64,000 nucleotides of DNA from Vulcanimicrobiota bacterium (GCA_963812135.1 CAWETU010000001.1:416001-480000), one strand, 5' to 3'. Counted from the first letter of the stretch, positions 1-15,577 are shown. Program-made: numbers and translations. The notes: a model not told the origin generated them from the sequence alone.

Positions 1-512
1 GACCTGCGCTGCAGAAAGCGTTCGGTTTTTTGCCGCTTTTCCAAGGACCTATTTATGGCGTCGGTTTCCTTGCCGGCGGTCTGATCCTGGCAATCATGGC
101 GGTGCCGACGGTCGCCGCGATATCCCGCGACGTGTTTGAAGCCGTGCCCAACGACCAGCGCGAGGGCATGCTGGCGTTGGGGGCGACTAAGTGGGAGATG
201 CTCACCCAAGCCGTATTGCCGTACTCGAGCTCCGGCGTCATCGGCGCACTCGTCCTCGGTCTGGGCCGTGCGCTCGGTGAAGCGATGGCAGTAGTCATGG
301 TCATCGGCAACAAGCCGCAGATTGTCGCATCGCTATTCGCGCCAGGCTATACGATGGCCAGCGTGCTCGCCAATGAATTCTCCGAAGCGACCGGCAAGGT
401 ATATATCTCCATGCTTATCGAGATCGGCCTACTTCTATTCGTGGTGAGCCTCATCGTCAACGTTCTCGCGCGCTTGCTGGTGTGGAACGCGAGCGGTCGG
501 GGTCGCCGCTGA
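1..512 (+). CDS. pstC: Phosphate ABC transporter permease PstC (5'-truncated by the window edge)
   Basis: Motifs REGMLALGATKWE, LGLGRALGEAMAV and MASVLANEFSEA; stop TGA overlaps the ATG of pstA (TGATG). Confidence 0.93.
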   Translation, partial: PALQKAFGFLPLFQGPIYGVGFLAGGLILAIMAVPTVAAISRDVFEAVPNDQREGMLALGATKWEMLTQAVLPYSSSGVIGALVLGLGRALGEAMAVVMVIGNKPQIVASLFAPGYTMASVLANEFSEATGKVYISMLIEIGLLLFVVSLIVNVLARLLVWNASGRGRR

Positions 513-1363
513 TGATCAATCTCAAGTCGATTGCCGTCCGCAAGGTATGGAGCGGTTTCATGATTGCTATCAGCGCGCTGTGCGCGCTGCTGTGCGGCGC
601 GGTGCTTGTGACCGTTGTGATCTACGTCATCGGAAGAGGCTATAAGGCGCTCAACTGGGACTTCTTCACGAAACTGCCGTTGCCGGTGGGCATGACGGGC
701 GGCGGCGTCGCCAACGCGATCGTCGGATCACTTGAAATTATAGCTATGGCATCTCTCGTCTCAGTGCCCATCGGCGTAATGGCCGGCATCTATCTTGCGC
801 TCTTCGGCAGGGGCCGACTCGCGGCGTCGGTACGCTTCTACAGCGACGTGCTCACGGGCATGCCATCGATCGCCGTCGGTGTTTTCGCCTACTCGCTGAT
901 CGTCATACCGAGCGGGCATTTCTCCGCGCACTCGGCCGCGGTGGCCCTGGCGGTTATCATGTTGCCAATCATCGTGCGCACGACCGAGGAAGCGGTCCGG
1001 CTTGTGCCCGGCGTGATCCGCGAGGGCGCCTTAGCGCTCGGGATTCCCGCGTGGAAGGCGACGCTTTTGGTAACTGTTCCAGTTGCACGCGCCGGCATCG
1101 TCACGGGTGTACTTCTCGCGGTGGCGCGTGTCGCGGGCGAATCCGCGCCGCTGCTATTTACCGCGTTCGGCAGTCAGTATTGGCCACGGGGTCTGGCTTC
1201 GCCGACCGCAGCGCTGCCGCTCATCATCTTCCAATACGCGATCTCTCCATACCACGACTGGCAGCAGATCGCGTGGGGCTGTGCGCTCGTGCTCGTAGCG
1301 CTGGTGTTCGCCCTGAATCTAATCGCCCGGTTCGCCTTCTCAGGGCGTGTGTCGGCGAATTGA
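512..1363 (+). CDS. pstA: Phosphate ABC transporter permease PstA
   Basis: [42 protein letters not shown] at 512 coupled to the pstC stop. Confidence 0.95.
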
Positions 1364-1379
1364 GAATGAAAAGGTGGAA

Positions 1380-2189
1380 ATGGCGACGACAATGACGATG
1401 TCCGGGACTGAGATCGCGACGAAGCTTGAGGTCAAGAACCTGAGCGCCTATTACGGCAAACACCTCGCCGTAAGCGGGGTCAACATGTATTTTGAACCTG
1501 GCGCCATCACAGCGTTGATCGGACCGTCTGGCTGCGGCAAGTCGACGCTGCTACGTTGCCTCAACCGCATGCACGAAGTGATTCCCAACGCGCGCGTCGA
1601 GGGCGAGGTGCTGCTGGACGGAAAGAATCTCTACGAGCCAGGCGTGGACCCCACGGACACGCGCCGACGCATCGGCATGGTGTTCCAACGCCCGAACCCG
1701 TTTCCGACGATGAACATCGTTGACAATGTGCTTGCCGGAGTACGTCTGGCGGGCAGGCCGCCCGGAGACGCCACGCTCGAGGATATCGCCGAGAAAAGCT
1801 TGCGCCGCGCGGCGCTCTGGGATGAGGTCAAAGACAAGCTCACCAAGGCGGGCACGTCTCTGTCAGGTGGACAACAGCAGCGGCTGTGCATCGCGCGCGC
1901 GCTGGCAGTGGACCCAGAAGTTCTGCTGATGGATGAGCCCGCCTCGGCGCTCGATCCGATCTCGACCGTGAAGATCGAAGAGCTCATGCGCGAGCTGCGG
2001 GGGGCCTATACGATCGTCATCGTGACCCACAACATGCAGCAGGCGGCGCGCTGTTCGGACTTCACCGGTTTCATGCTGGCCGGCGAAGCCGCGACTGGCG
2101 AATTGGTGGAATTCGACTCGACTTCAAAGATGTTCACCACGCCCAAAGAAAAGCGAACAGAAGATTACATCACTGGGCGCTTCGGTTAA
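1380..2189 (+). CDS. pstB: Phosphate ABC transporter ATPase PstB
   Basis: [53 protein letters not shown]-terminal YITGRFG; RBS-like AAGGTGG before ATG 1380. Confidence 0.97.
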
Positions 2190-2215: not shown

Positions 2216-2335
2216 GCCCGCCTAGCATCGGAGCTAGGACGGAGACCGCCCGCGTCCCCTCTCGCGTTGCCGCGGACCATTCATGTAGGCCGGCAACGAC
2301 GCGTTCGCTACGTAACCGCCGTCCGGAAAGAGCCG

Positions 2336-5131
2336 ATGTTGTTGAAACGGATTTCTATTGCCGCGTGCGCGCTTGCCGCGGCCTTTTTGTTTCTCGCGCC
2401 GTCGATCGCATCAGCGGACGGATTCACCGTCAAGGGCAAAGTGGTCGACGCGGCCACCGGCCTGCCGTTGGTCGGCGTGAAGCTCACGACCGTCGGCCCG
2501 ACCGTCACTTCGGCGACGTCCAACAGCGCCGGACGCTTCGAGTTCGATAACCTCGCGAGCGGCACGTACAGCTTGCAGATGGGGCTTGCGGGCTACGACA
2601 ACACGTTGTCGGAAGAATTCGCCGTCGGAACAGGCGTCTCGTTGCCGCTCACGCTTGCGATGCAGCGCACGACGCAGAGCTCGCAGATCCGCACGCTCGG
2701 CCGCACCACCGTCACGGCGGCGGCGTCGCTCCAAAAAGCGACCGTCATCTACAAGCAAGTGTCCGGCAATACGTTGCAACGCCAGGGCGTCACGCGCACC
2801 GGCGACGCCGTTCGCGCGCTGGGAGGCGTCGACAACACGTCAAGCGATTCGGCGAGCTTCGGCGACGACGTGCATCTGGCTATCCGCGGCATCGGCGATC
2901 TCGAGACCGTCTCGCTCATCGATGGTCACCCGGTCGCGCTCGGCCTCTCGGGCGGCCTCAACTACGAGATCAGTCCCTCCTTCGCGCTTCGCGCGGTCAG
3001 CGTGGTCTATGGCGCGGGCGGCGGCGACCTCTACGGCGTCGACGCGATCGGCGGCGTGGTCGACATGCAGACGCTCGATCCGACGCGCACGCCGCAGTAC
3101 GTGTTCACCCAAGGATGGGGCACCTTCGACAAGCTGACGAGCTCTCTGACGGGCACGGGTACTCTCGGCGGCGATCGCTGGGGATACGCGTTCGCGCTCG
3201 GTACGCAAGGCATCAACGGGCCGATCAAAAATACCGTGTTTTTCCAACCGGCCGCCGCGTTCGATCCATCCGCCACCGCACCAAACGTCGTCGCGGCCGA
3301 CCAATATCAGGTCAATTCGAACATCGTCAACCGCTCGATGCTGTACAAGCTGCGCTACGGCCTCGGCACCAACGCGCATCTCACCGCAGTCGCGTTGTCG
3401 AGCTACTACTGGGACAACAAGACCGGCAACGGCGACGGCGACTTCCTGCCGATGAACACCGCGCAAGCGATCGGCGCCCAGCGCCTCGCGGGCTACACGC
3501 CGGCCGGCAACGCGCCACCGTTCAACGCGCTCAACCCGCCGGATTGCCCGGCCGGCACGTTCGTCGGCTCGGGAACCGGCGGAAACGCATACGGCTACGG
3601 ACTCGACGGCGTGACGCCCGACGGCGGCACGACGTGCGTGACGCCACAGCAATGGGCCAATCTCAACTCGGGCTGGCAAGGTGCGGGACCTGCGTGGCAA
3701 GGGTTCACCAATCAGGACTATCAGGTGAAGTTCGACGCCACGTTCGGGCCTGGTACGCTGAACGTCAACGGCTTCCAGGATCTCTACGCGCATGTGTACG
3801 ATCGCACCAATGAGCTGCCGTTCTTGCTGGTGCCACCGGCGACGCCGCTCGGTCCGGGCTGCAATCCGAGTTGCACACTGGCGTCCAATCCGTTCTGGTA
3901 TAACGAGGCGATGAACAACGCCGGCGTCATCGGCACCTATAACATCGTCGGGCAGCAGAACGAATTCGGCTTCGGCGGCTACTACGACAACACGCGCAGC
4001 AAGTTCTCGAACGTCGGCGTTCCGGCGCCAAGTCCAGGAGCGTACGAGACCAGCGCGTTCTTTCGCGATTCATGGCACCCGACCAATTCGCCGCTCACAA
4101 CCTACGTGAGTGCGTACTTCAAGCACTCGACCGTGACGAACACGTCGTTCGTCGATCCACGCATCGCGTTCGTCGCGAACAAGCCCAACGATGTGTATCG
4201 CGCCGCCTTCGGCTACGTCAGCACGCAACCAACGCTCAGCGATGTCTTCTCGCCGTTCTCCCCGTCAGCACCAGGTTCGCTGGCAGGCAACGTGCGCTGC
4301 GGCACGCTGAACTCGGTCGGCAGCGGCGGCAACCCGGGCGTCGGGCCCGAGCGCGCGAGCGATACCGAATTCAGTTGGGGCCATAGTTTCGGCGGGGACT
4401 CGACCCTCCAGCTGTCGTTGTACTCCGAGCCGATCTACAATCAGCTCTACACGCAGACGATTCCCGTGATGAACTTCCCGTCGAGCTTCTTCGGTCCAAA
4501 CGGCTATGCGACCGACCTCAACTCGTACACGGGCATCTACACCGCGAACTGCGGCGGCACGGCAGCGCAAGCACTGCAGTTCCTCGGCGTCGACGGCGTC
4601 GTCAACATCGGCTCCGGACAAGCCGAAGGCATCGACCTCCAGGGCCGCCAGCGGATAACCCGGCAGTTCTTCGTCGACTATGGCTACGCGACGAACTCCA
4701 GCATGCCGCTACAAGTGCCGGCGAGCATCCTGCAAGGCAACTTGACGCTCGTGCCAGGCTCACAGTTGCCGGGGATCCCGCTGCACAAGGTCAACTTCGC
4801 GTTCGACTACACGTTCGGCAAGGGTCTCGAAGCGCGCAGCGAGACGTACTTCGTGTCCTTCAACAATCCGAAGAACCTACCGGCATACAACTACACGAAC
4901 CTCATCCTGTCGGCGAACACCGGACAGCGCGGCGTGTTCACAGCGATCATCAACAACTTATTCCAGCAGAACGCGTTCTCGCAGGGCCTGATCGGCAATG
5001 GGTATCCGCACGCGCTCAACCAATATGCGTCGCCGTCGGACTACACGCCGCTGATCGGGGCCGGGGCGACGGAAGAGTTCGGCCTCACGTCACGCACCCT
5101 CGAGTTCATCTACAGCTACAAACTTCACTGA
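2336..5131 (+). CDS. TonB-dependent outer-membrane receptor with N-terminal carboxypeptidase-regulatory-like domain
   Basis: Signal peptide; GKVVDAATGLPLVGV...SNSAGRFEF N-domain; plug motifs IRGIG, LIDGHPV and VVYGAGG...AIGGVVDM; beta-barrel-like C-terminus. Confidence 0.88.
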   Translation: MLLKRISIAACALAAAFLFLAPSIASADGFTVKGKVVDAATGLPLVGVKLTTVGPTVTSATSNSAGRFEFDNLASGTYSLQMGLAGYDNTLSEEFAVGTGVSLPLTLAMQRTTQSSQIRTLGRTTVTAAASLQKATVIYKQVSGNTLQRQGVTRTGDAVRALGGVDNTSSDSASFGDDVHLAIRGIGDLETVSLIDGHPVALGLSGGLNYEISPSFALRAVSVVYGAGGGDLYGVDAIGGVVDMQTLDPTRTPQYVFTQGWGTFDKLTSSLTGTGTLGGDRWGYAFALGTQGINGPIKNTVFFQPAAAFDPSATAPNVVAADQYQVNSNIVNRSMLYKLRYGLGTNAHLTAVALSSYYWDNKTGNGDGDFLPMNTAQAIGAQRLAGYTPAGNAPPFNALNPPDCPAGTFVGSGTGGNAYGYGLDGVTPDGGTTCVTPQQWANLNSGWQGAGPAWQGFTNQDYQVKFDATFGPGTLNVNGFQDLYAHVYDRTNELPFLLVPPATPLGPGCNPSCTLASNPFWYNEAMNNAGVIGTYNIVGQQNEFGFGGYYDNTRSKFSNVGVPAPSPGAYETSAFFRDSWHPTNSPLTTYVSAYFKHSTVTNTSFVDPRIAFVANKPNDVYRAAFGYVSTQPTLSDVFSPFSPSAPGSLAGNVRCGTLNSVGSGGNPGVGPERASDTEFSWGHSFGGDSTLQLSLYSEPIYNQLYTQTIPVMNFPSSFFGPNGYATDLNSYTGIYTANCGGTAAQALQFLGVDGVVNIGSGQAEGIDLQGRQRITRQFFVDYGYATNSSMPLQVPASILQGNLTLVPGSQLPGIPLHKVNFAFDYTFGKGLEARSETYFVSFNNPKNLPAYNYTNLILSANTGQRGVFTAIINNLFQQNAFSQGLIGNGYPHALNQYASPSDYTPLIGAGATEEFGLTSRTLEFIYSYKLH

Positions 5132-5148
5132 GACTTCGTGTCACGACG

Positions 5149-5224
5149 GCGCCGGTGGTTGCGACCCACCGGCGCGCCCCGCCGCCGCAGCCGGATATCC
5201 CCCCGGCGCGGCGGACCTTTTTTT
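5149..5224 (+). terminator. Tandem hairpins; the second is a likely intrinsic terminator
   Basis: GCGCCGGTGG-N7-CCACCGGCGC (5149-5175), then a CCGCCGCAGCCGG...CCGGCGCGGCGG stem followed by ACC-T7 (5182-5224). Confidence 0.55.
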
Positions 5225-5256
5225 CCGCGCTCGCTTTGAAGCGAGAGGGAGTTCTC

Positions 5257-7659
5257 ATGCATCGGACGTGCGCCGCGATCTCAAGCCTCCTCGCGACCGC
5301 CATCGCGGTCGTCGCGGCAAGCACCGCCGATGCGGCGACGCTGCCCGACGGGCGCTCCGTGACGCCGGCTGGATTCACGACGCCGGTCGAGGGCTTCGCG
5401 TCCTCGGAAGCGCTCTCACCCGACGGCGCGTACCTCGCGGTCTTGTCGCAAGATGGCGGCGCGATCGATATCATCGTCGTCGGCGAGCACTCGCAGCTCG
5501 TGCAGCGTTTGGCCGTGCCGTGGGCGAGCGCGATGACATGGACGACGGACGGGCTCTATGTGACGCGCGGCTATAGCGGAAGCATTGCACGATTCAGCTA
5601 CGATCCGAAAGCCGACGTTGAATCCGTTGACCTCAAAGGGCGCCGATCTGCAAGTCGGCGGCCTGCTCAACGGGATCGCTGAGGACCCGGCGACGCATCG
5701 CATTCTGGTCGCAAGGACAGCGGCGCACGAAGTCGCCGTGCTGGACGATCAGACCGGCGCCGTCACCACTCGGCTCGCGGCGAGCGGCCAACCGTTTCGC
5801 GTCGGGTTTGCCGGCGGCAGCGTGCTGGCGACGCTCTACAACTCGGATCACGTGGACGCGTGGCCTGCAGGCGCGACGAGCCCGACCCACATCGCCACGG
5901 GACCGCATCCCACCGCGCTGCTGATCGACGGCACGCGCGCCTTCGTCGCGAACGCCGACGGCCACGACGTCAGCATGATCGATATGAACTTACGACGTCT
6001 GTCGCGCCGCTTCGACCTCGGCATGACGCGCGACCAACCGCCGGGGCAAACGCCATCGGGGATGGCGCTCTCGGCCGATCGCAAGCGCCTGTTCGTCGCC
6101 GAATCGGGCTTCAACGACGTCGCGGTCGTGGACATGGACAGCGGCAAAGTGCTCGGACGCATCCCGACGGCATGGTATCCGATGGATGTCATCTTCGTGG
6201 CGGGCTCGACGATCGACGACGATCCGCGGATCAAGCCGCAGCTGTTCATCGTGAGCGCGCAAGGTCTGGGCTCGCAACCGAATCCGGGCTCCGAATGGGA
6301 TGGCGTCTACACCGGCCTGATCCAACATCTCGTGGTCGAGCCGGCGCGCTTCGAGCAATGGTCCGCGACCGTCGCGCGCAACGACCGCCTCAACGCCGCG
6401 CCGGCGACGGCGGGCGCAGCCATGCCGCCGATCAAGCATTTCATCTTCATCGTCCGCGAGAACAAGCACTTCGATGAGTTGTTCGGCGATGTTCCCGCGG
6501 CCAACTCGGATCCATTGCTCTGCCTGTACGGGCGCAAGTACACGCCTAACGCGCACGCACTCGCCGATCGCTACACCCTGTTCGACAACTTCATGGGCAA
6601 CGGCGAGAAGAGCGACTTCGGCCATGCGTGGACCACGGAAGGCGTCGCGAACGACTATCTCGAGCGCAACGGCCATACACCTGACGACGCCGCGACGAAG
6701 GACGATGCCCGCGTGGCCGGTTCGATATGGCCAGTCTACCTCTTCGGCGAAGACGCAGTCCCCGTTGCGACGATGGATTTCGATTGGTTCAAGAACCTCA
6801 TCGCGCTGGCGCATGGTCCGCGAGTCAACGTGAGCGCGGTTTTCGGTCCTCGCGGCGAGCTCATCGACGAGCTGCGCCGGCATAACGTGAGTTTCCGCGT
6901 CTATGGCGAGCAGATGACCATGCTGTCGAGCGGCGCGATCGCGCCAGGTCTGGCCGCGCACGCCGCGCAGGACTATCCCGGCGCGCATATCGATTTCGAC
7001 ATCCTCGACACCGCGCGCGCGAAACTGTTCCTCGCCGACGTCCAAAAGAACGGACTCGCGCAATACTCGTATCTCACGCTGCCGACCGATCACACCGCCG
7101 GCTTCGATCCGGGCTTCTACACACCGGCGTCGTACGTCGCGAGCAACGATGTCGCGCTCGGCGAAATCGTCGCCGGGCTCTCGAAGCGGCCGGAATGGCG
7201 CGGCACGCTGATCTTCGTGACGACGGATGACCCGCAGGGCACGGGCGACCATGTCGATTCCCACCGCATGCCGGCGCTGCTCATCGGGCCATACGCGCGC
7301 CACGGGCACATCGACCACACGCGATACAGCTTGCCATCGGTGTTGCGGACGGTCGAGCTCGCGTTCGGATTGCAGCCGCTGAACATCTACGACGCGATGG
7401 CGACCCCGCTGCTGGACGCCCTCGGCGCCCAACCGGCCGTGGCGCGTTACACGCGCTTCCTTCTAATATCGCGATGACGCGCAACCCCGGTAAGCGCAAG
7501 GGCACGTCGTTCATGCTCGACGGCCCGGACTCGGCCCGCATCCCCGATGAGGAATGGGCCTCGATCAAAGGAAGCTCGTCGCTCGCCGACCATGTCGCGT
7601 ATCTCAGCAAGCTGTCAGCGACGTTGGCCGCAGATCCGGACGCCCTCACGCGCTTCTAA
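5257..7659 (+). pseudogene. Secreted YVTN/YncE beta-propeller plus phosphoesterase (alkaline-phosphatase superfamily), split by two frameshifts (about 5640 and about 7453); pseudogene or sequencing error
   Basis: RBS GAGGGAG; signal peptide and LPDGRSVTPAG in frame 1; propeller repeats and PIKHFIFIVRENKHFD, PNAHALA, DDPQGTGDHVDSHR in frame 2; ALPSNIAMTRNPG... C-terminus back in frame 1; total span 2403 nt, 800 aa if repaired. Confidence 0.8.
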
Positions 7660-7694
7660 GAGGGGGCGCCCCGCGCGTCCGCTAACGCCATAGC

Positions 7695-8513
7695 GTGTCT
7701 CTCGCTGCAGAACGCTTTTTGGTGGCGGCGGCACGTTTGTGCGCCGTCCTGGTCGTCGCGATCCAGCCAGTCGTCATCATCATCTTGGTCATCGCGACCG
7801 TGGGCGCATTGATCCATGGCGTCACGATTTCATCCAACGGATTCATCTGGCTGACGACGGCGACGGTGGGGCTGGCGCTCGTCGGGGCGACACTCGGCAC
7901 GGCGCTCGGCGTCGGCGGCTCGCTGTACGCCGAAGAGATCGCGCCCGCGGCGGCGCGGCAGATCATCAAGGGGCTGGTAGGCGGCCTGCACGCGCTGCCC
8001 GCCGTCGGTTTCGGCGTCGCGGCCGCCGGCGTGCTGCTCGTGACGCCGGTCGTGCCCAATACCGCGCTGACGTTCGCGATCGCTTCGATCGTCATCACGG
8101 CGATGATCGCCTCGGTCGTGTTCGTGCAGACCCGTCGCGCCCTTGCGGCCCTGCCGCCTGAGCTGCGCGAAGTGGCCGCCGCAGCGGGCGCAGATCCCGT
8201 GAACGCGGCGGTGCGCGCGGTCTTACCGGCGTTGCAGCGCAACGTCGCGGGCATCTGGTGGTCTGCGCTCGCCCTTGCGTTGGGCGAGGCGACCGCGCTG
8301 CAGATCATCTTCAGCGCGGCATCCATGAAAGCAGCGGCTGTCGGCATGCCGCCGGTCGCGGGAACGCTCGCGAGCACCTTGCTGCAGGTCGGCGCGTCTG
8401 AACGAGGCGCGGCGCTGCTCGGCACGGCGCCGGTGGCGTTGCTGCTCGTCGCAATGGCGATCGCGGCCGTCCTTCTCGGCCGCCGCGCGGTTGGGCACGT
8501 GCAATGGCCGTGA
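7695..8513 (+). CDS. Divergent PstC-like ABC permease
   Basis: Hydrophobic; SLYAEEIAP, LPAVGFG, EAA-like loop LPPELREVAAAAGADP, LALALGEATA; stop overlaps the next GTG start. Confidence 0.75.
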   Translation: MSLAAERFLVAAARLCAVLVVAIQPVVIIILVIATVGALIHGVTISSNGFIWLTTATVGLALVGATLGTALGVGGSLYAEEIAPAAARQIIKGLVGGLHALPAVGFGVAAAGVLLVTPVVPNTALTFAIASIVITAMIASVVFVQTRRALAALPPELREVAAAAGADPVNAAVRAVLPALQRNVAGIWWSALALALGEATALQIIFSAASMKAAAVGMPPVAGTLASTLLQVGASERGAALLGTAPVALLLVAMAIAAVLLGRRAVGHVQWP

Positions 8514-9349
8514 CCGCGCTACGCGCCACGATCCCACCCGCGCGTGTGGCGCAACCGCTCACCGCGATCGTCCTCGCGACGTGCGCCGCGATCCTGTGCT
8601 TCTCGATCGTGGCGATCCTCGGCTGGCTTGCGCTCACGGGGATTCCGAACAGCCTGCGCGTGCTCAACCCGCATTATCCAGGTTCGGTGTTGGCGCCGGT
8701 CGCGGCGACGATCTACGTCACGGTGCTCGCGTTGCCACCGACGATCATCGTCGGCGTGTTCGCGGCGATCGCGGCGACCGAGGTGCGCATCTTCGGCATC
8801 GCGGCGGCCGGCATGCGCAGCGCGCTCGCCTTGCTGGGCAGCCTGCCGACCATCGTCGTCGCGTTCGCAGCGGTGATCGGCGTGAACGCGCTGGGCTGGC
8901 ACCCGAGCCTGACGGGAGCGGCCTTTTTGCTTGCGGCGATCAACATGCCGCTCATGACGGCTTTGGCGGTCGACGCGCTCAGTCGCAAGTCGATGGACGT
9001 GCGTGAGGCCGCCAGCGCGCTTGGCGCATCGCCGATGTTCATCGTGCGCCGCGTGCTCTTGCCGAAGTCCGGCGCGCGGCTCGGCAGCGCGATCATCATC
9101 GTGGCCACGCAGCTGATCGGTGCGGCTGCGGCCGTCGCCATCGTGGCCGGCGCGCTCGTGCCGCGCAGCAGCGGCGCTGCGCCCGTCGGAGCTTGGCCGC
9201 TCGCGGTGCACGTGTGGATCCGGGGCGGCGATATCGGCGGCTACGGCGCCACGGCCGCCGCCGCGCTGTTCCTCGGCTTGATGATCTGGTTCTTGCAAGG
9301 CGTGGCTCGGTTGCGCGCAAGCCCAGATGCCCGTCGGGAGGTGCGATGA
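8510..9349 (+). CDS. Divergent PstA-like ABC permease
   Basis: LGSLPTIVV, EAA loop VREAASALGAS, LAVHVW; GTGA and ATGA overlaps with its neighbours. Confidence 0.75.
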   Translation: MTALRATIPPARVAQPLTAIVLATCAAILCFSIVAILGWLALTGIPNSLRVLNPHYPGSVLAPVAATIYVTVLALPPTIIVGVFAAIAATEVRIFGIAAAGMRSALALLGSLPTIVVAFAAVIGVNALGWHPSLTGAAFLLAAINMPLMTALAVDALSRKSMDVREAASALGASPMFIVRRVLLPKSGARLGSAIIIVATQLIGAAAAVAIVAGALVPRSSGAAPVGAWPLAVHVWIRGGDIGGYGATAAAALFLGLMIWFLQGVARLRASPDARREVR

Positions 9350-10122
9350 GCCCGGAACGAACGCAGCTCGAGACCAAGATCGAAGTCAACAAAGTCGACG
9401 TGTGGTATGGTGGCGTGCAAGCGCTGCGCAACGCGACGTTCGATGTCGGCTCGAAGACGACGACGGCTTTGATCGGCGCCGGCGGTTCCGGCAAGACGAC
9501 GCTGCTGCGCGCCTTGAACCGCATGCACGATCTCAACCCGGATGCGCGCGTGCAGGGCAGCATCAAGATCGACGGCGCGGAGATCCTCGGGCCGGGCGTG
9601 GACAGCGCGCGGCTGCGGCGCAATGTCGGCATGGTGTTCGCACGTCCGACCATGCTCCCGACGAGCATCGCTGACAACGTCCGATTCGGTCTTGCAGCGC
9701 AGGGCGTGCGCGACGAGCGGACGCTGCGCGAGACAAGCGAGCGAGCGCTGCGGCGCGTCTCGCTGTGGGAGCGCCTGAGCGGCAGTCTGGATGCGCCGGC
9801 GGCTTCATTGCCGGAGGACCTGCAGCAGCGGCTGTGCATCGCGCGAGCGCTCGCAGTCGATCCCGATGTGCTTCTGCTCGACGACCCGACCGCCACATTG
9901 GATCCGATCGCCGCGCTGGCCGTCGAGGACGTCATCGCACGCTTGCGCCGCGACCACACCATCATCATCGCCACCAACGACCTGCAACAAGCCGCGCGGC
10001 TCGCGGACATCACGATCTACATGGCAAACGGGGAGATCGTCGAGTCCGGCGACACGCCGCTCCTCTTCAACAAGCCGGCCGACCAGCGCACCGAAGCGTT
10101 CTTGGCGGGTCGCACCGCGTGA
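9346..10122 (+). CDS. PstB-like ABC ATPase with degenerate catalytic motifs
   Basis: Collinear with PstB ([35 protein letters not shown]); Walker A GAGGSGKTT intact; RBS GGAGG before ATG 9346. Confidence 0.85.
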   Translation: MSPERTQLETKIEVNKVDVWYGGVQALRNATFDVGSKTTTALIGAGGSGKTTLLRALNRMHDLNPDARVQGSIKIDGAEILGPGVDSARLRRNVGMVFARPTMLPTSIADNVRFGLAAQGVRDERTLRETSERALRRVSLWERLSGSLDAPAASLPEDLQQRLCIARALAVDPDVLLLDDPTATLDPIAALAVEDVIARLRRDHTIIIATNDLQQAARLADITIYMANGEIVESGDTPLLFNKPADQRTEAFLAGRTA

Positions 10123-10186: not shown

Positions 10187-11530
10187 ATGCATTACTATGA
10201 CTCTGCGCTCGACGTCGTCGGCTCGACGCCGCTGGTGCGCCTGCATCGCGTCGTGGATGCCCGCTGTCTCGTTTTGGGTAAGGTCGAGTTCTTCAACCCG
10301 GGCGGGTCGGTGAAGGACCGGCCTTCGCTTGCCATGATCAGCGACGCGGAAGAGCGCGGTCTACTGCGCCCCGGCGGCACGATCGTCGAAGCGACCTCCG
10401 GCAATACCGGCACCGGCCTTGCCATGGTGGCCGCCATCAAGGGGTATCGCTGCATTCTCGTGATGCCCGACAAGGTCAGCGAGGAAAAAGTACGTCTGCT
10501 GCGTGCGTACGGCGCTGAGGTCGTCATCACACCGACGAACGTGCCTGCGAGCAGCCCGGAATCCTATTACGGTGTGGCCGCCAAACTCGCGAGCGAAATA
10601 CCGGGGGCCTTCCAGCCGAACCAATTCGCCAACATGCTCAATCCGCGATCCCACGAGGCTTCGACGGGTCCGGAGATCTGGGAAGCGACCGCCGGCAAGA
10701 TCACGCACTTCGTGAGCGGCATCGGGACGGGCGGCACGATCTCGGGCGTGGCGCACTATCTAAAGAAGCAAAATCCCTCGATCGTGGTCGTCGGCGCCGA
10801 TCCGGAAGGGTCGATCTACTCGGGCGATACGGCCAAGTCGTACAAGGTCGAGGGCATCGGCGAAGACTTCTTGCCGGCGACCGTCGACCTCAAGGCCATC
10901 GACCGGATCGAGCGCGTCTCGGATAAGGACTCATTCTTGATGGCGCGCCGCACGTGTCGCGAAGAGGGTCTGCTGGTCGGCGGTTCTTCGGGCACCGCGC
11001 TGGTCGCCGCCGCCCGCATCGCGCGCGAGCTGCCGGCGGACGCGATCGTCGTCGTCCTGCTGCCGGATAACGGCCGCGGCTATCTCTCCAAGATCTTCAA
11101 CGACGAGTGGATGCGCGCCAACGGCTTCTTGGGTGAGCAGGGGCTGGGCGCGACGGTGGGCGACGTGCTGCGCGCCAAAGGCGAACTGCAACTCGTCACA
11201 TTGGCGCCGTCCGATCCCGTCAAGCGCGGCATCGAATTGATGCGCGAGTTCCAGATCTCGCAGATCCCGGTCGTCGATGCCGGCGAGATGGTCGGCAGCA
11301 TCAACGAAGTCGCGGTGATGCAGCTCATCTACGATCGCGCCGACGTGGCGCACCAGCCGGTCAAAGAAGTCATGGCAAAGCCGTTCCCGGTGCTCGAAGA
11401 GCGCGATGAGGTCGAGAAGGCGTACAAAGCGCTATCCCTCGGCCACGGCGCGGTCGTGGTTTCGCGCAAAGGCATCCCGGTCGGCGTCTTGACGAAGATG
11501 GACATCATCTCGTACCTCTCGGCCAACTAA
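10187..11530 (+). CDS. cbs: Cystathionine beta-synthase with C-terminal CBS domains
   Basis: NPGGSVKDR (PLP lysine), EATSGNTG, GTGGT, C-terminal CBS pair; alternative GTG start at 10133. Confidence 0.9.
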   Translation: MHYYDSALDVVGSTPLVRLHRVVDARCLVLGKVEFFNPGGSVKDRPSLAMISDAEERGLLRPGGTIVEATSGNTGTGLAMVAAIKGYRCILVMPDKVSEEKVRLLRAYGAEVVITPTNVPASSPESYYGVAAKLASEIPGAFQPNQFANMLNPRSHEASTGPEIWEATAGKITHFVSGIGTGGTISGVAHYLKKQNPSIVVVGADPEGSIYSGDTAKSYKVEGIGEDFLPATVDLKAIDRIERVSDKDSFLMARRTCREEGLLVGGSSGTALVAAARIARELPADAIVVVLLPDNGRGYLSKIFNDEWMRANGFLGEQGLGATVGDVLRAKGELQLVTLAPSDPVKRGIELMREFQISQIPVVDAGEMVGSINEVAVMQLIYDRADVAHQPVKEVMAKPFPVLEERDEVEKAYKALSLGHGAVVVSRKGIPVGVLTKMDIISYLSAN

Positions 11531-11540
11531 AGGCGGCTCC

Positions 11541-12686
11541 ATGGAGTTCTCGACCAAGGCGATCCACGTCGGCCAGGACGCCGATCCGACGACGGGCGCG
11601 ACCATCGTGCCCATCTACCAGACGACCACCTACACGCAGGCGGCGCCCGGGCAACATAAAGGCTTCGACTATTCCCGGACGATCAATCCGACGCGCGTGG
11701 CTTTGGAGCGCTGCCTCGCGTCGCTCGAGAACGCGTCTTTCGGTCTGTGTTTTTCAAGCGGCATGGCCGCGACGTCGGCGGTGATGAACTTGTTGTCGTC
11801 GGGCGACCACGTTGTGGTCAACGACGACATCTACGGCGGCACGTTCAGGCTGTTCGACAAGGTGTTCACGCGCTACGGCGTGAGCTTCACCTACGTGGAT
11901 GCGACCGATGTGGCGCGCGTCGCGGCGGCGATGAAGCCGTCCACCAAGATGGTCTGGCTGGAGACGCCGACCAATCCGCTGCTGCACCTCGTCGATCTCG
12001 CAGCAGTGGCCGCGCTGTGCGCAGGCCGCGGGATCCACGTTGCGGTCGACAATACGTTTGCCACTCCATATCTGCAGAATCCGCTCGATCTCGGCGCATC
12101 GATCGTGGTGCATTCGACCACCAAATACATCGGCGGTCATTCCGACGCGCTCGGCGGCTTTGCGGCTGTCAACGACCCCAAGCTTCACGAAGTCTTGAAA
12201 TTCCATCAGAACGCGGTCGGGGGCGTTCCCGGACCGTTCGATTGCTTCTTGACGTTGCGCGGCGCAAAAACGCTGGCGATCCGAATGCGCGAACACGATC
12301 GCAACGCGCGTGCGATCGCCGATTTCTTGTCCAAACACGCTGACGTCGACCGCGTCTACTACCCGGGTCTCACGACCCACGCGCAGCACGAGCTCGCGAA
12401 GAAGCAGATGCGTGGTTTCGGCGGCATGGTGTCGTTCACGCTCAAGGGAGCGCCCGATCGGGCGCGCGCGTTCGCGTCGAGCACTAAGCTATTCTCGCTC
12501 GCCGAGAGCTTAGGTGGCGTCGAATCGCTGGTCTGCCACCCGGCGACGATGACCCACGGCTCGATCCCCAAGGAAGTCCGCGAAGCCCGCGGCGTGACCG
12601 ACGGGCTTCTGCGGCTGTCGGTGGGCATCGAAGACATACACGATCTGATCGCCGATCTCGAGCGCGCGTTCAATGCGTCCCGCTAA
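11541..12686 (+). CDS. Cystathionine gamma-lyase/gamma-synthase (Cys/Met metabolism PLP enzyme)
   Basis: YSRTINPT, ETPTNP, DNTFATP, STTKYIGGHSD, AESLGGVESL, RLSVGIE. Confidence 0.93.
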   Translation: MEFSTKAIHVGQDADPTTGATIVPIYQTTTYTQAAPGQHKGFDYSRTINPTRVALERCLASLENASFGLCFSSGMAATSAVMNLLSSGDHVVVNDDIYGGTFRLFDKVFTRYGVSFTYVDATDVARVAAAMKPSTKMVWLETPTNPLLHLVDLAAVAALCAGRGIHVAVDNTFATPYLQNPLDLGASIVVHSTTKYIGGHSDALGGFAAVNDPKLHEVLKFHQNAVGGVPGPFDCFLTLRGAKTLAIRMREHDRNARAIADFLSKHADVDRVYYPGLTTHAQHELAKKQMRGFGGMVSFTLKGAPDRARAFASSTKLFSLAESLGGVESLVCHPATMTHGSIPKEVREARGVTDGLLRLSVGIEDIHDLIADLERAFNASR

Positions 12687-14122: not shown

Positions 14123-15577
14123 GTGCAGTTCGACAACGAAGCGCAGCGCGCGCTCGACACCGCTTCGGCCAAGGGAGCGGACTATGCGGACGTGCGTTTC
14201 GGCGTCAACAAAGACGAGCACGCCGAGGTCCGTAACGGCGTCGTCTCAAGTCTGAACGACTCTGAGAGCAGCGGCTTTTCCATTCGTGCCCTGGTCGACG
14301 GCGCGTGGGGATTTGCGTCGAGCGCGTTGATCGAGTCCGCTGAGATCGATCGCGTCGCGGCGCTCGCGGTCGAGGTCGCGCGTGCCAGCCGCGCCATCCA
14401 AGAGCACCGCATCGAGTTGCAACCAGCCGGCAAATTCGTGGACAGTTACAAGACGCCGGTGCAAATCGATCCCGCGACGGTTTCGACGAGCGATCGCGTC
14501 AAGTATCTGCTCGACGTAGACAAAGAAGTGCGCGCAGCCAGCGGCGTGACCGTCGCGCGCGCCTGGATCGACGTCTGGCGCACGAAGAAGTGCTTCGCGA
14601 GCACGGAAGGGAGCCGCATCGAGCAAGACCTCGTCCAATGCGGGTCCGCCCTCTCTGCGCTTGCGATCGGCGACGGCGATGTGCAGGACCGCCTGTATCC
14701 CGGCACGGCGGGCCTCTACCAGACGGGCGGCTACGAGATCGTGAACAACGCGCAGCTGTTGGAGAACGCGCGCCGCGTCGGCGACGAGGCGGTCGCGTTG
14801 CTCACCGCGGACCAGTGCCCGAGCGGCACGACGGACATCGTGCTCTCGAGCGACCAGCTCTCACTGCAGATCCACGAGTCGATCGGCCACGCCCTCGAGC
14901 TCGATCGCGTGCTTGGTTGGGAGGCCAACTTCTCAGGGTTGTCATTCGCCACGCTCGACAAATTGAAGACGTTCCGCTACGGAAGCGACATCGTCACGGT
15001 CGTGTGCGACATGACGTGCCCACAAGCGCTTGCGACCGAGGGCTACGACGATGAGGGCACGCCGTCCAAGAGCGTCGACCTGATCCGCGATGGGATCTTG
15101 GTCGGTTATATGGCTGGGCGCGATACCGCCTCGGCTGCCGACGTGCAACTTGCGGGCGTCGTGCGCGCCGAGTATTGGGGGCGCCTGCCGATGATCCGCA
15201 TCGGCAACGTCAATTTGCTGCCGGGTACCGCCACGTCGCTCGACGACCTGTTCGCGGATATCAAGCAAGGCGTCTATATGGAGAGCAATCGCTCGTGGTC
15301 GATCGACGACAAGCGCTTGAACTTCCAGTTCGGCTGCCAACTCGGCTACGAGATCAAGAACGGCAAGAAAGGGCGGCTGCTCAAGAATCCGACCTACGCC
15401 GGCATGACGCCGGCGTTTTGGGCGTCATGCGATGCGATCGGCGACAAGTCGACCTGGGTGGCGTGGGGCACGCCCAACTGCGGCAAAGGCGAGCCCATCC
15501 AGACGGCGCGTTCGTGCCAAGGATCGGCGCCCGCGCGCTTCCGCGCGATCGAAGTCGGGGTGGGCTATGGCGGTTGA
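14123..15577 (+). CDS. tldD: TldD metalloprotease (catalytic subunit)
   Basis: YADVR, GAWGFAS, HESIGH, YDDEG, C-terminal CGKGEP. Confidence 0.92.
   Translation: MQFDNEAQRALDTASAKGADYADVRFGVNKDEHAEVRNGVVSSLNDSESSGFSIRALVDGAWGFASSALIESAEIDRVAALAVEVARASRAIQEHRIELQPAGKFVDSYKTPVQIDPATVSTSDRVKYLLDVDKEVRAASGVTVARAWIDVWRTKKCFASTEGSRIEQDLVQCGSALSALAIGDGDVQDRLYPGTAGLYQTGGYEIVNNAQLLENARRVGDEAVALLTADQCPSGTTDIVLSSDQLSLQIHESIGHALELDRVLGWEANFSGLSFATLDKLKTFRYGSDIVTVVCDMTCPQALATEGYDDEGTPSKSVDLIRDGILVGYMAGRDTASAADVQLAGVVRAEYWGRLPMIRIGNVNLLPGTATSLDDLFADIKQGVYMESNRSWSIDDKRLNFQFGCQLGYEIKNGKKGRLLKNPTYAGMTPAFWASCDAIGDKSTWVAWGTPNCGKGEPIQTARSCQGSAPARFRAIEVGVGYGG

Follow-up and report, generated by a model that had tools for sequence, protein, structure and literature searches.

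Why should a bacterium that can already import phosphate keep a second set of phosphate import genes, in which the ATPase subunit has lost the motifs normally used for ATP hydrolysis? The question is raised by a stretch of 64,000 nucleotides (nt) from a Vulcanimicrobiota bacterium (GCA_963812135.1 CAWETU010000001.1:416001-480000, one strand), here called the window. It contains pstC2, pstA2 and pstB2, three open, overlapping genes on the same strand, the first of which starts 5.5 kb downstream of a canonical pstC1A1B1 operon. The products of the two operons are referred to as Pst2 and Pst1. The anatomy and the evolution of Pst2 are solid. Its function is approached more tentatively, and we propose that it lies in signalling.

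Catalytic motifs of PstB2

PstB2 is 45% identical to PstB1 over 265 columns, and the sequences flanking the catalytic motifs, including QQAAR, are common to both. Walker A is kept in PstB2, while the Q-loop reads GMVFA, the LSGGQ signature has become LPEDL, Walker B ends in Asp-Asp instead of Asp-Glu, and the switch reads ATND instead of VTHN (Table 1). PstB1 of the window has the VTHN switch, and all its catalytic motifs are canonical. A preliminary description of this DNA had listed the kept Walker A and the same four changes, with well conserved flanks, in three open reading frames (ORFs) that are translationally coupled and very diverged. All of this is borne out by the alignments, by the reading of the ORFs and by their overlaps. 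The distance given there, with PstB1 8 kb upstream, needs correction: pstB1 ends 5.5 kb before pstC2 and about 7.2 kb before pstB2.

The overlap between pstC2 and pstA2 is ATGGCCGTGA. The start of pstB2 is the ATG at 9346, which forms an ATGA overlap with the pstA2 stop codon, lies 5 nt after GGGAGG, and gives a protein of 258 residues, like the orthologs. The TTG at 9193 (listed ORF 9193-10122) was rejected as a start, being over-extended by comparison with these 258-residue orthologs.

The fold is clearly that of PstB. Its alignment to E. coli PstB (9k3x_C, E 7.1e-61) needs no gaps and puts PEDL at the position of S155-Q158; the equivalent of E. coli Q160 is conserved (Gln at 9826-9828). On the family model TIGR00972 it scores 275.8 bits, which is under the cut-off of 343.2 passed by PstB1 (366.4), although PstB is still by far its best family. 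The AlphaFold2 (AF2) model has a predicted local distance difference test score (pLDDT) of 90.2; Foldseek places E. coli PstB at ranks 1-2, and superposition on 9k3x_C gives template modelling (TM) scores of 0.90/0.95 and a root-mean-square deviation of 1.5 Å at 42% identity. The PstB-wide invariant positions kept by the PstB2 clade include G45, G50, K51, D180, D187, P188, Q216, A217 and R219 (counted from nt 9343). PstB2 thus retains the PstB fold, Walker A, the Walker B Asp and the D-loop, and because these are conserved, nucleotide binding probably persists. Judged from its sequence, PstB2 probably binds ATP without hydrolysing it.

The pattern is not peculiar to one genome. We sampled 401 genomes of the phylum; the family of the window (coded f1) comprises ten genera, that of the window being g1, with 29 other genomes. 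A PstB2-type gene is present in 28 of these 29 and in all ten genera, at 51-87% identity (25 of 26 if the three unpublished genomes G344, G232 and G128 are left aside). The single exception is G211, which is 89% complete and in which only PstB1 was seen. The motifs of 27 orthologs were read; if the unpublished genomes are set aside, 24 remain and the pattern is the same. The second Walker B residue is Asp in 23, Asn in one and Glu in three, these last from genus g5; the switch position is Asn in 26 and His in one (G067). The same motif pattern is found in 26 database proteins of the PstB2 clade, which partly overlap the 27 orthologs. It recurs throughout both sets and is not a product of chance.

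The permeases and the membrane phosphate site

The two permeases have diverged much further, and neither reaches a curated family cut-off. PstC2 scores 22.2 and 23.3 bits on TIGR02138 and TIGR00974 (cut-offs 196.45 and 193.45), and PstA2 scores 45.2 bits on TIGR00974 (E 6.5e-12; cut-off 193.45). A single-sequence search of the PDB gave no matches for PstC2 and only MetI-type matches, at E 0.01, for PstA2. When family profiles are used, the PstC2 profile finds E. coli PstC as its best match (E 1.1e-21), followed by PstA (1e-13) and MetI (2.3e-6), and the PstA2 profile finds E. coli PstA (E 9.3e-17) ahead of PotC (2.9e-7). The AF2 model of PstC2 has a pLDDT of 78.6, and its best Foldseek match is 9k3x_B. 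Because the family profiles and the AlphaFold models match E. coli Pst best, the operon is derived from PstC, PstA and PstB in canonical order, and not from the permeases of another type I importer. Few positions in the membrane domains are conserved, with 22 and 14 columns at ≥90% in the two permeases. The Gly of the EAA coupling loop is invariant, in 19/19 PstC2 and 20/20 PstA2.

In the membrane domain of E. coli PstSCAB, inorganic phosphate (Pi) is held by PstA Arg220 and PstC Arg237, and mutation of these residues lowers Pi binding and import, according to the sections of PMC12976172 used here. The E. coli structures to which we aligned the window proteins (the 9k3 series) are 2026 cryo-EM entries. 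In window PstA1, R220 and E224 are both present, and in window PstC1, aligned to 9k3s_B, the sequence GRALGE supplies R237 and E241. The corresponding residues of PstC2 and PstA2 are given in Table 1. Across the family the PstC R237 position is Arg in 11 of 19 loci, Leu in 7 (all of genus g1) and Ala in 1, and at the PstA R220 position 15 of 20 loci have Gln, the other 5 (g5 and g8) having Arg. Both arginines are lost in 7/7 loci of g1. This loss of the Pi-coordinating residues is a new point, and on the alignments it fits a complex that does not transport.

Selection, gene neighbourhood and origin

It could be argued that pst2 is a dying duplicate without function, decaying in this lineage. 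The operon evolves faster than pst1, with a ratio of nonsynonymous to synonymous change (dN/dS) 2-4 times higher, its composition has drifted, and pstS2 has been lost in most genera. Codon models (IQ-TREE) were fitted to g1 (5-7 sequences) and to a second lineage consisting of genera g4, g7 and g9; the trees are long, so that absolute values of dN/dS (ω) are rough. In g1 and in the second lineage respectively, ω was 0.055 and 0.064 for pstB2, 0.076 and 0.060 for pstC2, and 0.090 and 0.111 for pstA2, compared with 0.024 in both for pstB1, 0.045 for pstA1 (g1), and 0.029 and 0.021 for the cystathionine beta-synthase-like (CBS) gene downstream. The neutral value ω=1 is rejected in g1, with twice the log-likelihood difference (2dlnL) at 924 for pstB2, 713 for pstC2 and 626 for pstA2, and it is rejected in the second lineage as well. 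Pairwise estimates by the Nei-Gojobori method (NG86) at dS 0.5-1.0 agree: 0.06-0.16 for pstB2, 0.15-0.30 for pstC2, 0.20-0.36 for pstA2 and 0.02-0.07 for pstB1. Three cells in which tblastn had picked the wrong segment were left out of the pairwise comparison, namely the TonB-dependent receptor gene between L012 and L013 and between the window and L013 (dN above 2), and pstB1 between L124 and L013 (L124 is without pstB1).

Constraint on pst2 is therefore 2-4 times weaker than on pst1, yet clearly present, and protein identities to the window, taken over 13 family loci outside g1, show the same contrast: 51-62% for PstB2 against 74-81% for PstB1, 27-39% for PstC2 against 69-89% for PstC1, and 27-33% for PstA2, where it was detected at all, against 63-77% for PstA1. 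No stops or frameshifts were found in pstC2, pstA2 or pstB2 across 19-20 loci, and in contigs of relatives from soil metagenomes the indels inside the three genes are all in-frame. With reading frames intact in all three genes, ω=1 rejected in two lineages, only in-frame indels in the environment, and the operon kept in 28/29 family genomes of ten genera, decay is a very improbable explanation. As far as sequences can tell, motifs have been lost selectively while the scaffold was conserved, as the preliminary description had supposed. It had asked whether orthologs share the substitutions and the gene order with dN/dS below 1, and they do: all 27 lack the Q-loop Gln and LSGGQ, the order is fixed in 19/19 loci, and both kinds of estimate lie far below 1 (ω 0.055-0.111, pairwise 0.06-0.36).

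The window begins inside a Pho island, all on one strand, whose order is phoB-phoR-phoU-pstS-pstC1A1B1-receptor-orf175-phosphoesterase-pstC2A2B2-CBS-CGL, where CGL is a cystathionine gamma-lyase-like gene. The genome itself (2.79 Mb, 98% complete) has a single PstB above the family cut-off, with PstB2 as the second-best match, one PhoU and one PstS, both encoded just upstream of the window, and one Pit-type carrier. Pi uptake is already provided by Pst1 and the Pit-type carrier. In the window no pstS adjoins pstC2 and no phoU follows pstB2.

Table 1 Coordinates of the pst2 operon, its motifs and the neighbouring genes in the window
Feature	Position (nt)	Strand	Basis or remark
pstC2, very diverged PstC-derived permease gene, 272 aa	7695..8513	+	EAA loop 8160-8231
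pstA2, very diverged PstA-derived permease gene, 281 aa	8504..9349	+	EAA loop 8999-9070
pstB2, PstB-derived nucleotide-binding subunit gene, degenerate catalytic motifs, 258 aa	9346..10122	+	Ortholog length, motifs
PstB2 Walker A GAGGSGKTT, kept	9475..9501	+	Lys in 24/27 orthologs, Arg in 3 (three g8 genomes)
PstB2 Q-loop GMVFA	9628..9642	+	Ala at 9640..9642 = E. coli Q98; Gln in 0/27 orthologs
PstB2 LPEDL replacing LSGGQ signature	9808..9822	+	LSGGQ in 0/27 orthologs; replacement residues vary
PstB2 Walker B LLLDD	9871..9885	+	Asp-Asp at 9880..9885 for Asp-Glu; Asp 9883-9885 = E. coli E179
PstB2 switch ATND replacing VTHN	9970..9981	+	Asn for His at 9976..9978
PstC2 LALGE	8274..8288	+	Leu at E. 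coli PstC Arg237; Glu241 equivalent kept
PstA2 QLIGA	9110..9124	+	Gln at E. coli PstA Arg220; Ala at Glu224
pstC1, 3' part	3..512	+	TIGR02138 179.7 bits on 169-aa fragment; gene starts upstream of window
pstA1, canonical permease gene	482..1363	+	TIGR00974 269.1 bits vs cut-off 193.45
pstB1, canonical ATPase gene	1347..2189	+	TIGR00972 366.4 bits vs cut-off 343.2; all motifs canonical; first listed start may be too early
TonB-dependent-receptor-like gene	2267..5131	+	Pfam CarboxypepD_reg + Plug; variable insert between the two pst operons
orf175	5155..5682	+	No Pfam match; 57-78% identity in family loci
Phosphoesterase-family gene	5585..7660	+	Pfam PF04185, E 2.6e-23
Cystathionine beta-synthase-like and gamma-lyase-like genes	10187..12686	+	Pfam PALP + CBS, Cys_Met_Meta_PP; 3' neighbours of pstB2

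The order pst1 ... pstC2A2B2-CBS-CGL is constant in the family loci, and only the insert of receptor, orf175 and phosphoesterase genes varies. The receptor-like gene is present in g1, with distant versions in some genera and none in others. Wherever the phosphoesterase gene occurs in family loci, orf175 lies directly 5' of it; the listed ORF of orf175 runs past the listed start of its neighbour, so that the two overlap. The phosphoesterase gene of the window has a frame break near 7449-7450, and the listed ORF stops at 7477, while its orthologs continue to about 35 nt before pstC2. Compared with five orthologs the window has a 1-nt gap, which cuts off about 60 C-terminal residues; these are encoded up to 7660 in a different frame. 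Contigs from three soil runs have one more G after 7450, and the break is probably due to misassembly or to variation between strains. In G278 (81% complete) the insert is missing and pstC2 follows directly after pstB1; the pstB1 match there (locus L125, 7471-8302) is in two pieces in different frames, which is possibly a frameshift or an assembly error. Third-position GC content is 0.75-0.76 in pstA1/pstB1, 0.85-0.88 in pstC2A2B2 and 0.82-0.83 in the neighbours, and PstC2 and PstA2 consist of 22-23% alanine.

The distribution of PstB2 coincides with the family. In the 371 phylum genomes outside f1 no PstB2-type gene was found, nor any match above 50% identity; the best two matches there (G357 and G036) carry canonical motifs, as do all nine PstB copies in four genomes of the sister family f2. 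A sister-family genome, G045, has two adjacent pstB genes after pstS-pstC-pstA (locus L149, 9086-10626), both canonical, in a layout known from Firmicutes. A third PstB-like match of G045 (216 bits), 34% identical to PstB1 and with canonical motifs, was dropped as a general ABC (ATP-binding cassette) ATPase. The f1 organisms are named in their sources Candidatus Eremiobacteraeota, Eremiobacteraceae or Vulcanimicrobiota. The record of one locus, L012, is titled Candidatus Binatus sp.; it has the gene order of the window's genus and 72-95% protein identity throughout, and the label probably reflects a binning or labelling problem.

As to origin, three loci of two genera (g4 and g8) carry a second pstS just before pstC2. 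The preliminary description had noted the lack of an adjacent pstS, which holds for the genus of the window and not for these two. The PstS2 of g8 is intact and matches solved PstS structures (E 5.8e-72); inspected by eye, it keeps the segments that we take to be Pi-binding. The three PstS2 sequences make up a single clade in a PstS tree (approximate likelihood-ratio support, SH-aLRT, 96), within the family PstS group (98). PstB2 likewise forms one clade (99-100), and its topology mirrors that of PstB1. When other degenerate PstB-like proteins are included, the PstB2 clade falls among them, with weak support and long branches. When these outsiders are removed, PstB1 and PstB2 of f1 each form one clade, and a tree holding both together is not rejected (approximately unbiased test, p-AU 0.116). 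Duplication within the family is thus compatible with the PstB tree and better supported by the PstS tree. Because two genera keep an intact pstS2, the ancestor appears to have been a full duplicate. The most economical history is that pstSCAB was duplicated in tandem once, close to the base of this Eremiobacterota family, and that most genera have since lost pstS2. On this history pstC2A2B2 would be the remnant of a tandem copy of the whole operon. The presence patterns also suggest an order of loss. The nucleotide-binding domain (NBD) would have died first, because loss of the Gln and of the signature is common to all orthologs, and the membrane Pi site would have followed, most completely in the genus of the window, which is also without pstS2.

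Degenerate PstB-like proteins are not confined to this family. A profile of the PstB2 clade was run against 1.84 billion representatives and the best 150 clusters were classified; the query favours degenerate sequences, so that the counts are not frequencies. None of the four catalytic motifs is lost in 88 clusters, one in 21, two in 18, three in 12 and four in 10 (one of these being the representative of f1 itself), and one cluster is gapped. Among these 150, 21 PstB-like clusters from other lineages are thus without three or four of the motifs. Many representatives outside the family are without two to four motifs and yet keep the Walker A Lys. Their sources include Verrucomicrobiota and Acidimicrobiales, all are annotated as ordinary PstB, and one degenerate relative (locus L151, 6585-9472) sits in a pstC-pstA-pstB-phoU operon.

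Possible functions and related systems

In ABC transporters generally, ATP is sandwiched, with Walker A and B of one NBD on one side of it and the LSGGQ of the partner NBD on the other; closure of the dimer turns the membrane domain outward. The same mechanism is restated in the sections used here of PMC12976172. In E. coli, the PstB variant Q160K, which is predicted to be open, does not transport and yet signals Pi sufficiency constitutively, E179Q gives the starvation signal, and Arg-to-Gln changes in PstA and PstC block transport and not signalling; it was proposed there that what PhoU and PhoR sense is the conformation of the transporter (PMC5775613, in the part used here). PhoU is described as bridging PstB and PhoR in high phosphate (PMC9239213, likewise in part).

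Because a PstB mutant of E. coli that is predicted to be locked open signals sufficiency, and PhoU and PhoR are proposed to sense conformation, we propose a regulatory role for Pst2. It is quite possible, reading from sequence to function, that Pst2 is a non-transporting complex stuck in the resting conformation, which acts on PhoU/PhoR signalling. PstC2, PstA2 and PstB2 would still assemble a membrane complex of the PstC/PstA/PstB type, and this complex would probably still bind nucleotide, given that it retains the EAA loops, the fold of the NBD, Walker A and the D-loop as well as the Walker B Asp. Its function as a pump would be gone, PstB2 being without the ATP-clamping signature, the catalytic Glu, the switch His and the Q-loop Gln, and in the genus of the window it would be gone also through the loss of both Pi-holding arginines. 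A dimer of PstB2 would neither close nor hydrolyse ATP, leaving the complex permanently inward-facing with its NBDs open. Pst2 would then be a regulatory subunit set of the Pho system, presumably made together with Pst1 from the Pho island, and would offer PhoU and a soluble PhoR an unchanging PstB surface in the resting state or, alternatively, provide a docking site for PstS-Pi in the lineages that keep pstS2. The effect would be feedback on, or tuning of, the Pho response, and not phosphate import.

The PhoR encoded upstream of the window (locus L137, 12295-13392) starts 19 nt after the end of phoB and has 365 residues, with PAS, HisKA and HATPase domains. It has no hydrophobic N-terminal segment and looks like a soluble protein, unlike E. 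coli PhoR, which we take to be membrane-anchored; for the same reason, it would have to be recruited to the membrane by partners. Upstream of pstS there is a candidate Pho box (G000:C1:414256-414295; L137 ~14256-14295) in which a CTTAAC-like unit recurs three to four times, once every 11 bp. In a scan of the genome the triple repeat occurs nowhere else, and two-repeat matches lie at 2 other, unrelated places.

Several points weigh against the signalling proposal. In the scan no copy of the repeat preceded pstC2, the receptor gene or the phosphoesterase gene, although the motif was guessed from one site and its absence says little; only gene order points to Pho control of pst2. The signalling model for E. 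coli is likewise hypothetical, since the locked state of its mutants is a prediction. Some residual activity could be left by Asp in Walker B and Asn in the switch. Both membrane arginines are still present in the early-branching genera g5 and g8, as is the Walker B Glu in g5; ancestral Pst2 may therefore have kept a role related to transport for some time, and function need not be uniform among the genera. Change in the permeases is very rapid (27-39% identity, compared with 63-89% for PstC1/PstA1), and they are drifting towards an Ala-rich, GC-rich composition, and this could merely reflect a loose structural requirement.

A more specific version, which we find doubtful, is that Pst2 is a dedicated phosphate-signalling receptor, so that transport (Pst1) and sensing (Pst2) are split between the paralogs. 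Pst2, with its dead NBD, its membrane domain without a Pi site and, ancestrally, a PstS2 of its own, would be confined to either reporting the occupancy of PstS with Pi or showing a fixed conformation to PhoU and the soluble PhoR. If it were true, the 21 other PstB-like clusters with three or four motifs lost would be widespread, unrecognised pseudo-Pst sensors.

Other functions can be imagined for Pst2. It might be a brake on Pst1, PstB2 (and/or PstC2 and PstA2) entering Pst1 complexes or competing for PstS, so that inactive transporters limit Pi influx at full Pho induction; such a role overlaps the inhibition of transport ascribed to PhoU. The tandem position of pst2, directly after pstB1 in G278, is in keeping with a brake, as are the PstB fold with its many PstB-specific residues and the fact that in a genus without pstS2 the only binding protein available is PstS1. 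We nevertheless regard it as unlikely, because all three genes stay together in every locus, which argues for a complex of their own, and because mixed membrane dimers seem unlikely for permeases so remote from PstC1 and PstA1, and with no more than 27-39% identity within the family. A passive channel, a facilitator or a transporter of another solute, working without ATP hydrolysis and with PstB2 as a nucleotide-gated or structural lid, is distinctly unlikely. Loss of the two Pi-selective arginines, the kept Walker A, and the neighbouring phosphoesterase and TonB-dependent receptor genes, which suggest scavenging of organophosphates, speak for such a channel. However, NBDs without a signature cannot close on ATP, making ATP gating of a known type unlikely, few membrane positions are conserved, and g5 and g8 keep the arginines and yet have a dead NBD, so that loss of the ATPase preceded any change in specificity.

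A further possibility is a slow but active ATP-driven importer, working through the Walker B Asp and the switch Asn or through a PstB1-PstB2 heterodimer. It could draw on the conserved Walker A, Walker B Asp and D-loop, on the Asp-Glu kept by g5 and the His kept by G067, and on the intact PstS2 of two genera. Against this, the four catalytic elements have gone together, the sequence that replaces the signature is not conserved, and the Pi-binding arginines are gone in the genus of the window, so that we consider it quite improbable. The asymmetric heterodimer with PstB1, offered as one possibility in the preliminary description, is disfavoured by what is generally understood of ABC heterodimers and ABC mechanism: because Walker B, switch, Q-loop and signature are all degenerate in PstB2, both halves of a composite site are affected, and neither a PstB1-PstB2 dimer nor a PstB2 homodimer would have a consensus site.

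The signalling proposal bears on a long-standing question, namely how PstSCAB reports phosphate to PhoR independently of transport, which has rested on few engineered E. coli mutants. Pst2 represents a natural separation-of-function system, with R220 changed to Gln, R237 lost, the signature destroyed and the Glu lost, kept by purifying selection beside a working Pst1 in ten genera. If it binds PhoU or PhoR, it would supply biochemists and structural biologists with a signalling state already locked in one conformation. There is also a warning for annotation: the pst2 genes are named 'phosphate ABC transporter ATP-binding protein' in databases, and anyone reconstructing the metabolism of Eremiobacterota would take them for a second system of high-affinity Pi uptake.

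Among the titles listed by literature searches there was no description of a degenerate or pseudo-ATPase Pst system, and those listed for Eremiobacterota with pst or PhoU included nothing on such a system. Duplicate Pst systems as such are familiar. Synechocystis and S. pneumoniae reportedly each have a Pst1 and a Pst2, with paralogs that are treated as working. In E. faecalis, the tandem pstB1 and pstB2 are likewise treated as working ATPases in the sections of PMC12096839 used here. All three resemble the present locus in having more than one pst operon or pstB, with the work divided between the paralogs.

Similar at the level of motifs are TM287/288, TAP1/2 and CFTR, which have one degenerate ATP site, the changes being split over two NBDs so that one consensus site survives. 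They share with PstB2 the change of Walker B Glu to Asp, a replaced switch His and a non-consensus signature, but PstB2 carries all the changes in one polypeptide. At the level of function, models are yeast Snf3/Rgt2 and Ssy1 and E. coli UhpC, transporter-like sensors that do not transport, which are single-polypeptide secondary carriers with demonstrated signalling. They illustrate how a duplicated, transport-dead protein can serve as a receptor; Pst2 differs in being a three-gene ABC importer for which signalling is proposed.

The most direct comparison is with E. coli PstSCAB (PDB 9k3s, 9k3x, 9k3y; PMC12976172, in part), with which Pst2 shares subunit types, gene order and EAA loops. It differs in being without the Q-loop Gln, SGGQ, the Walker B Glu and the switch His, and, in the genus of the window, without R220 and R237; window Pst2 is also without its own pstS and without phoU after pstB2, and falls below the curated cut-offs for PstA, PstB and PstC. 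There is also a likeness to the E. coli separation-of-function mutants PstA R220Q, PstC R237Q and PstB Q160K (PMC5775613, in the part citing Cox et al. 1988/89): PstA2 naturally has Gln at the R220 position, PstC2 has lost R237, and the signature region of PstB2 is destroyed, although Q160 itself is conserved and it is the preceding SGGQ that has been replaced. The E. coli mutants are single laboratory changes in a sole Pst system, whereas the changes in Pst2 are combined, have been fixed by evolution, and stand beside an intact Pst1.

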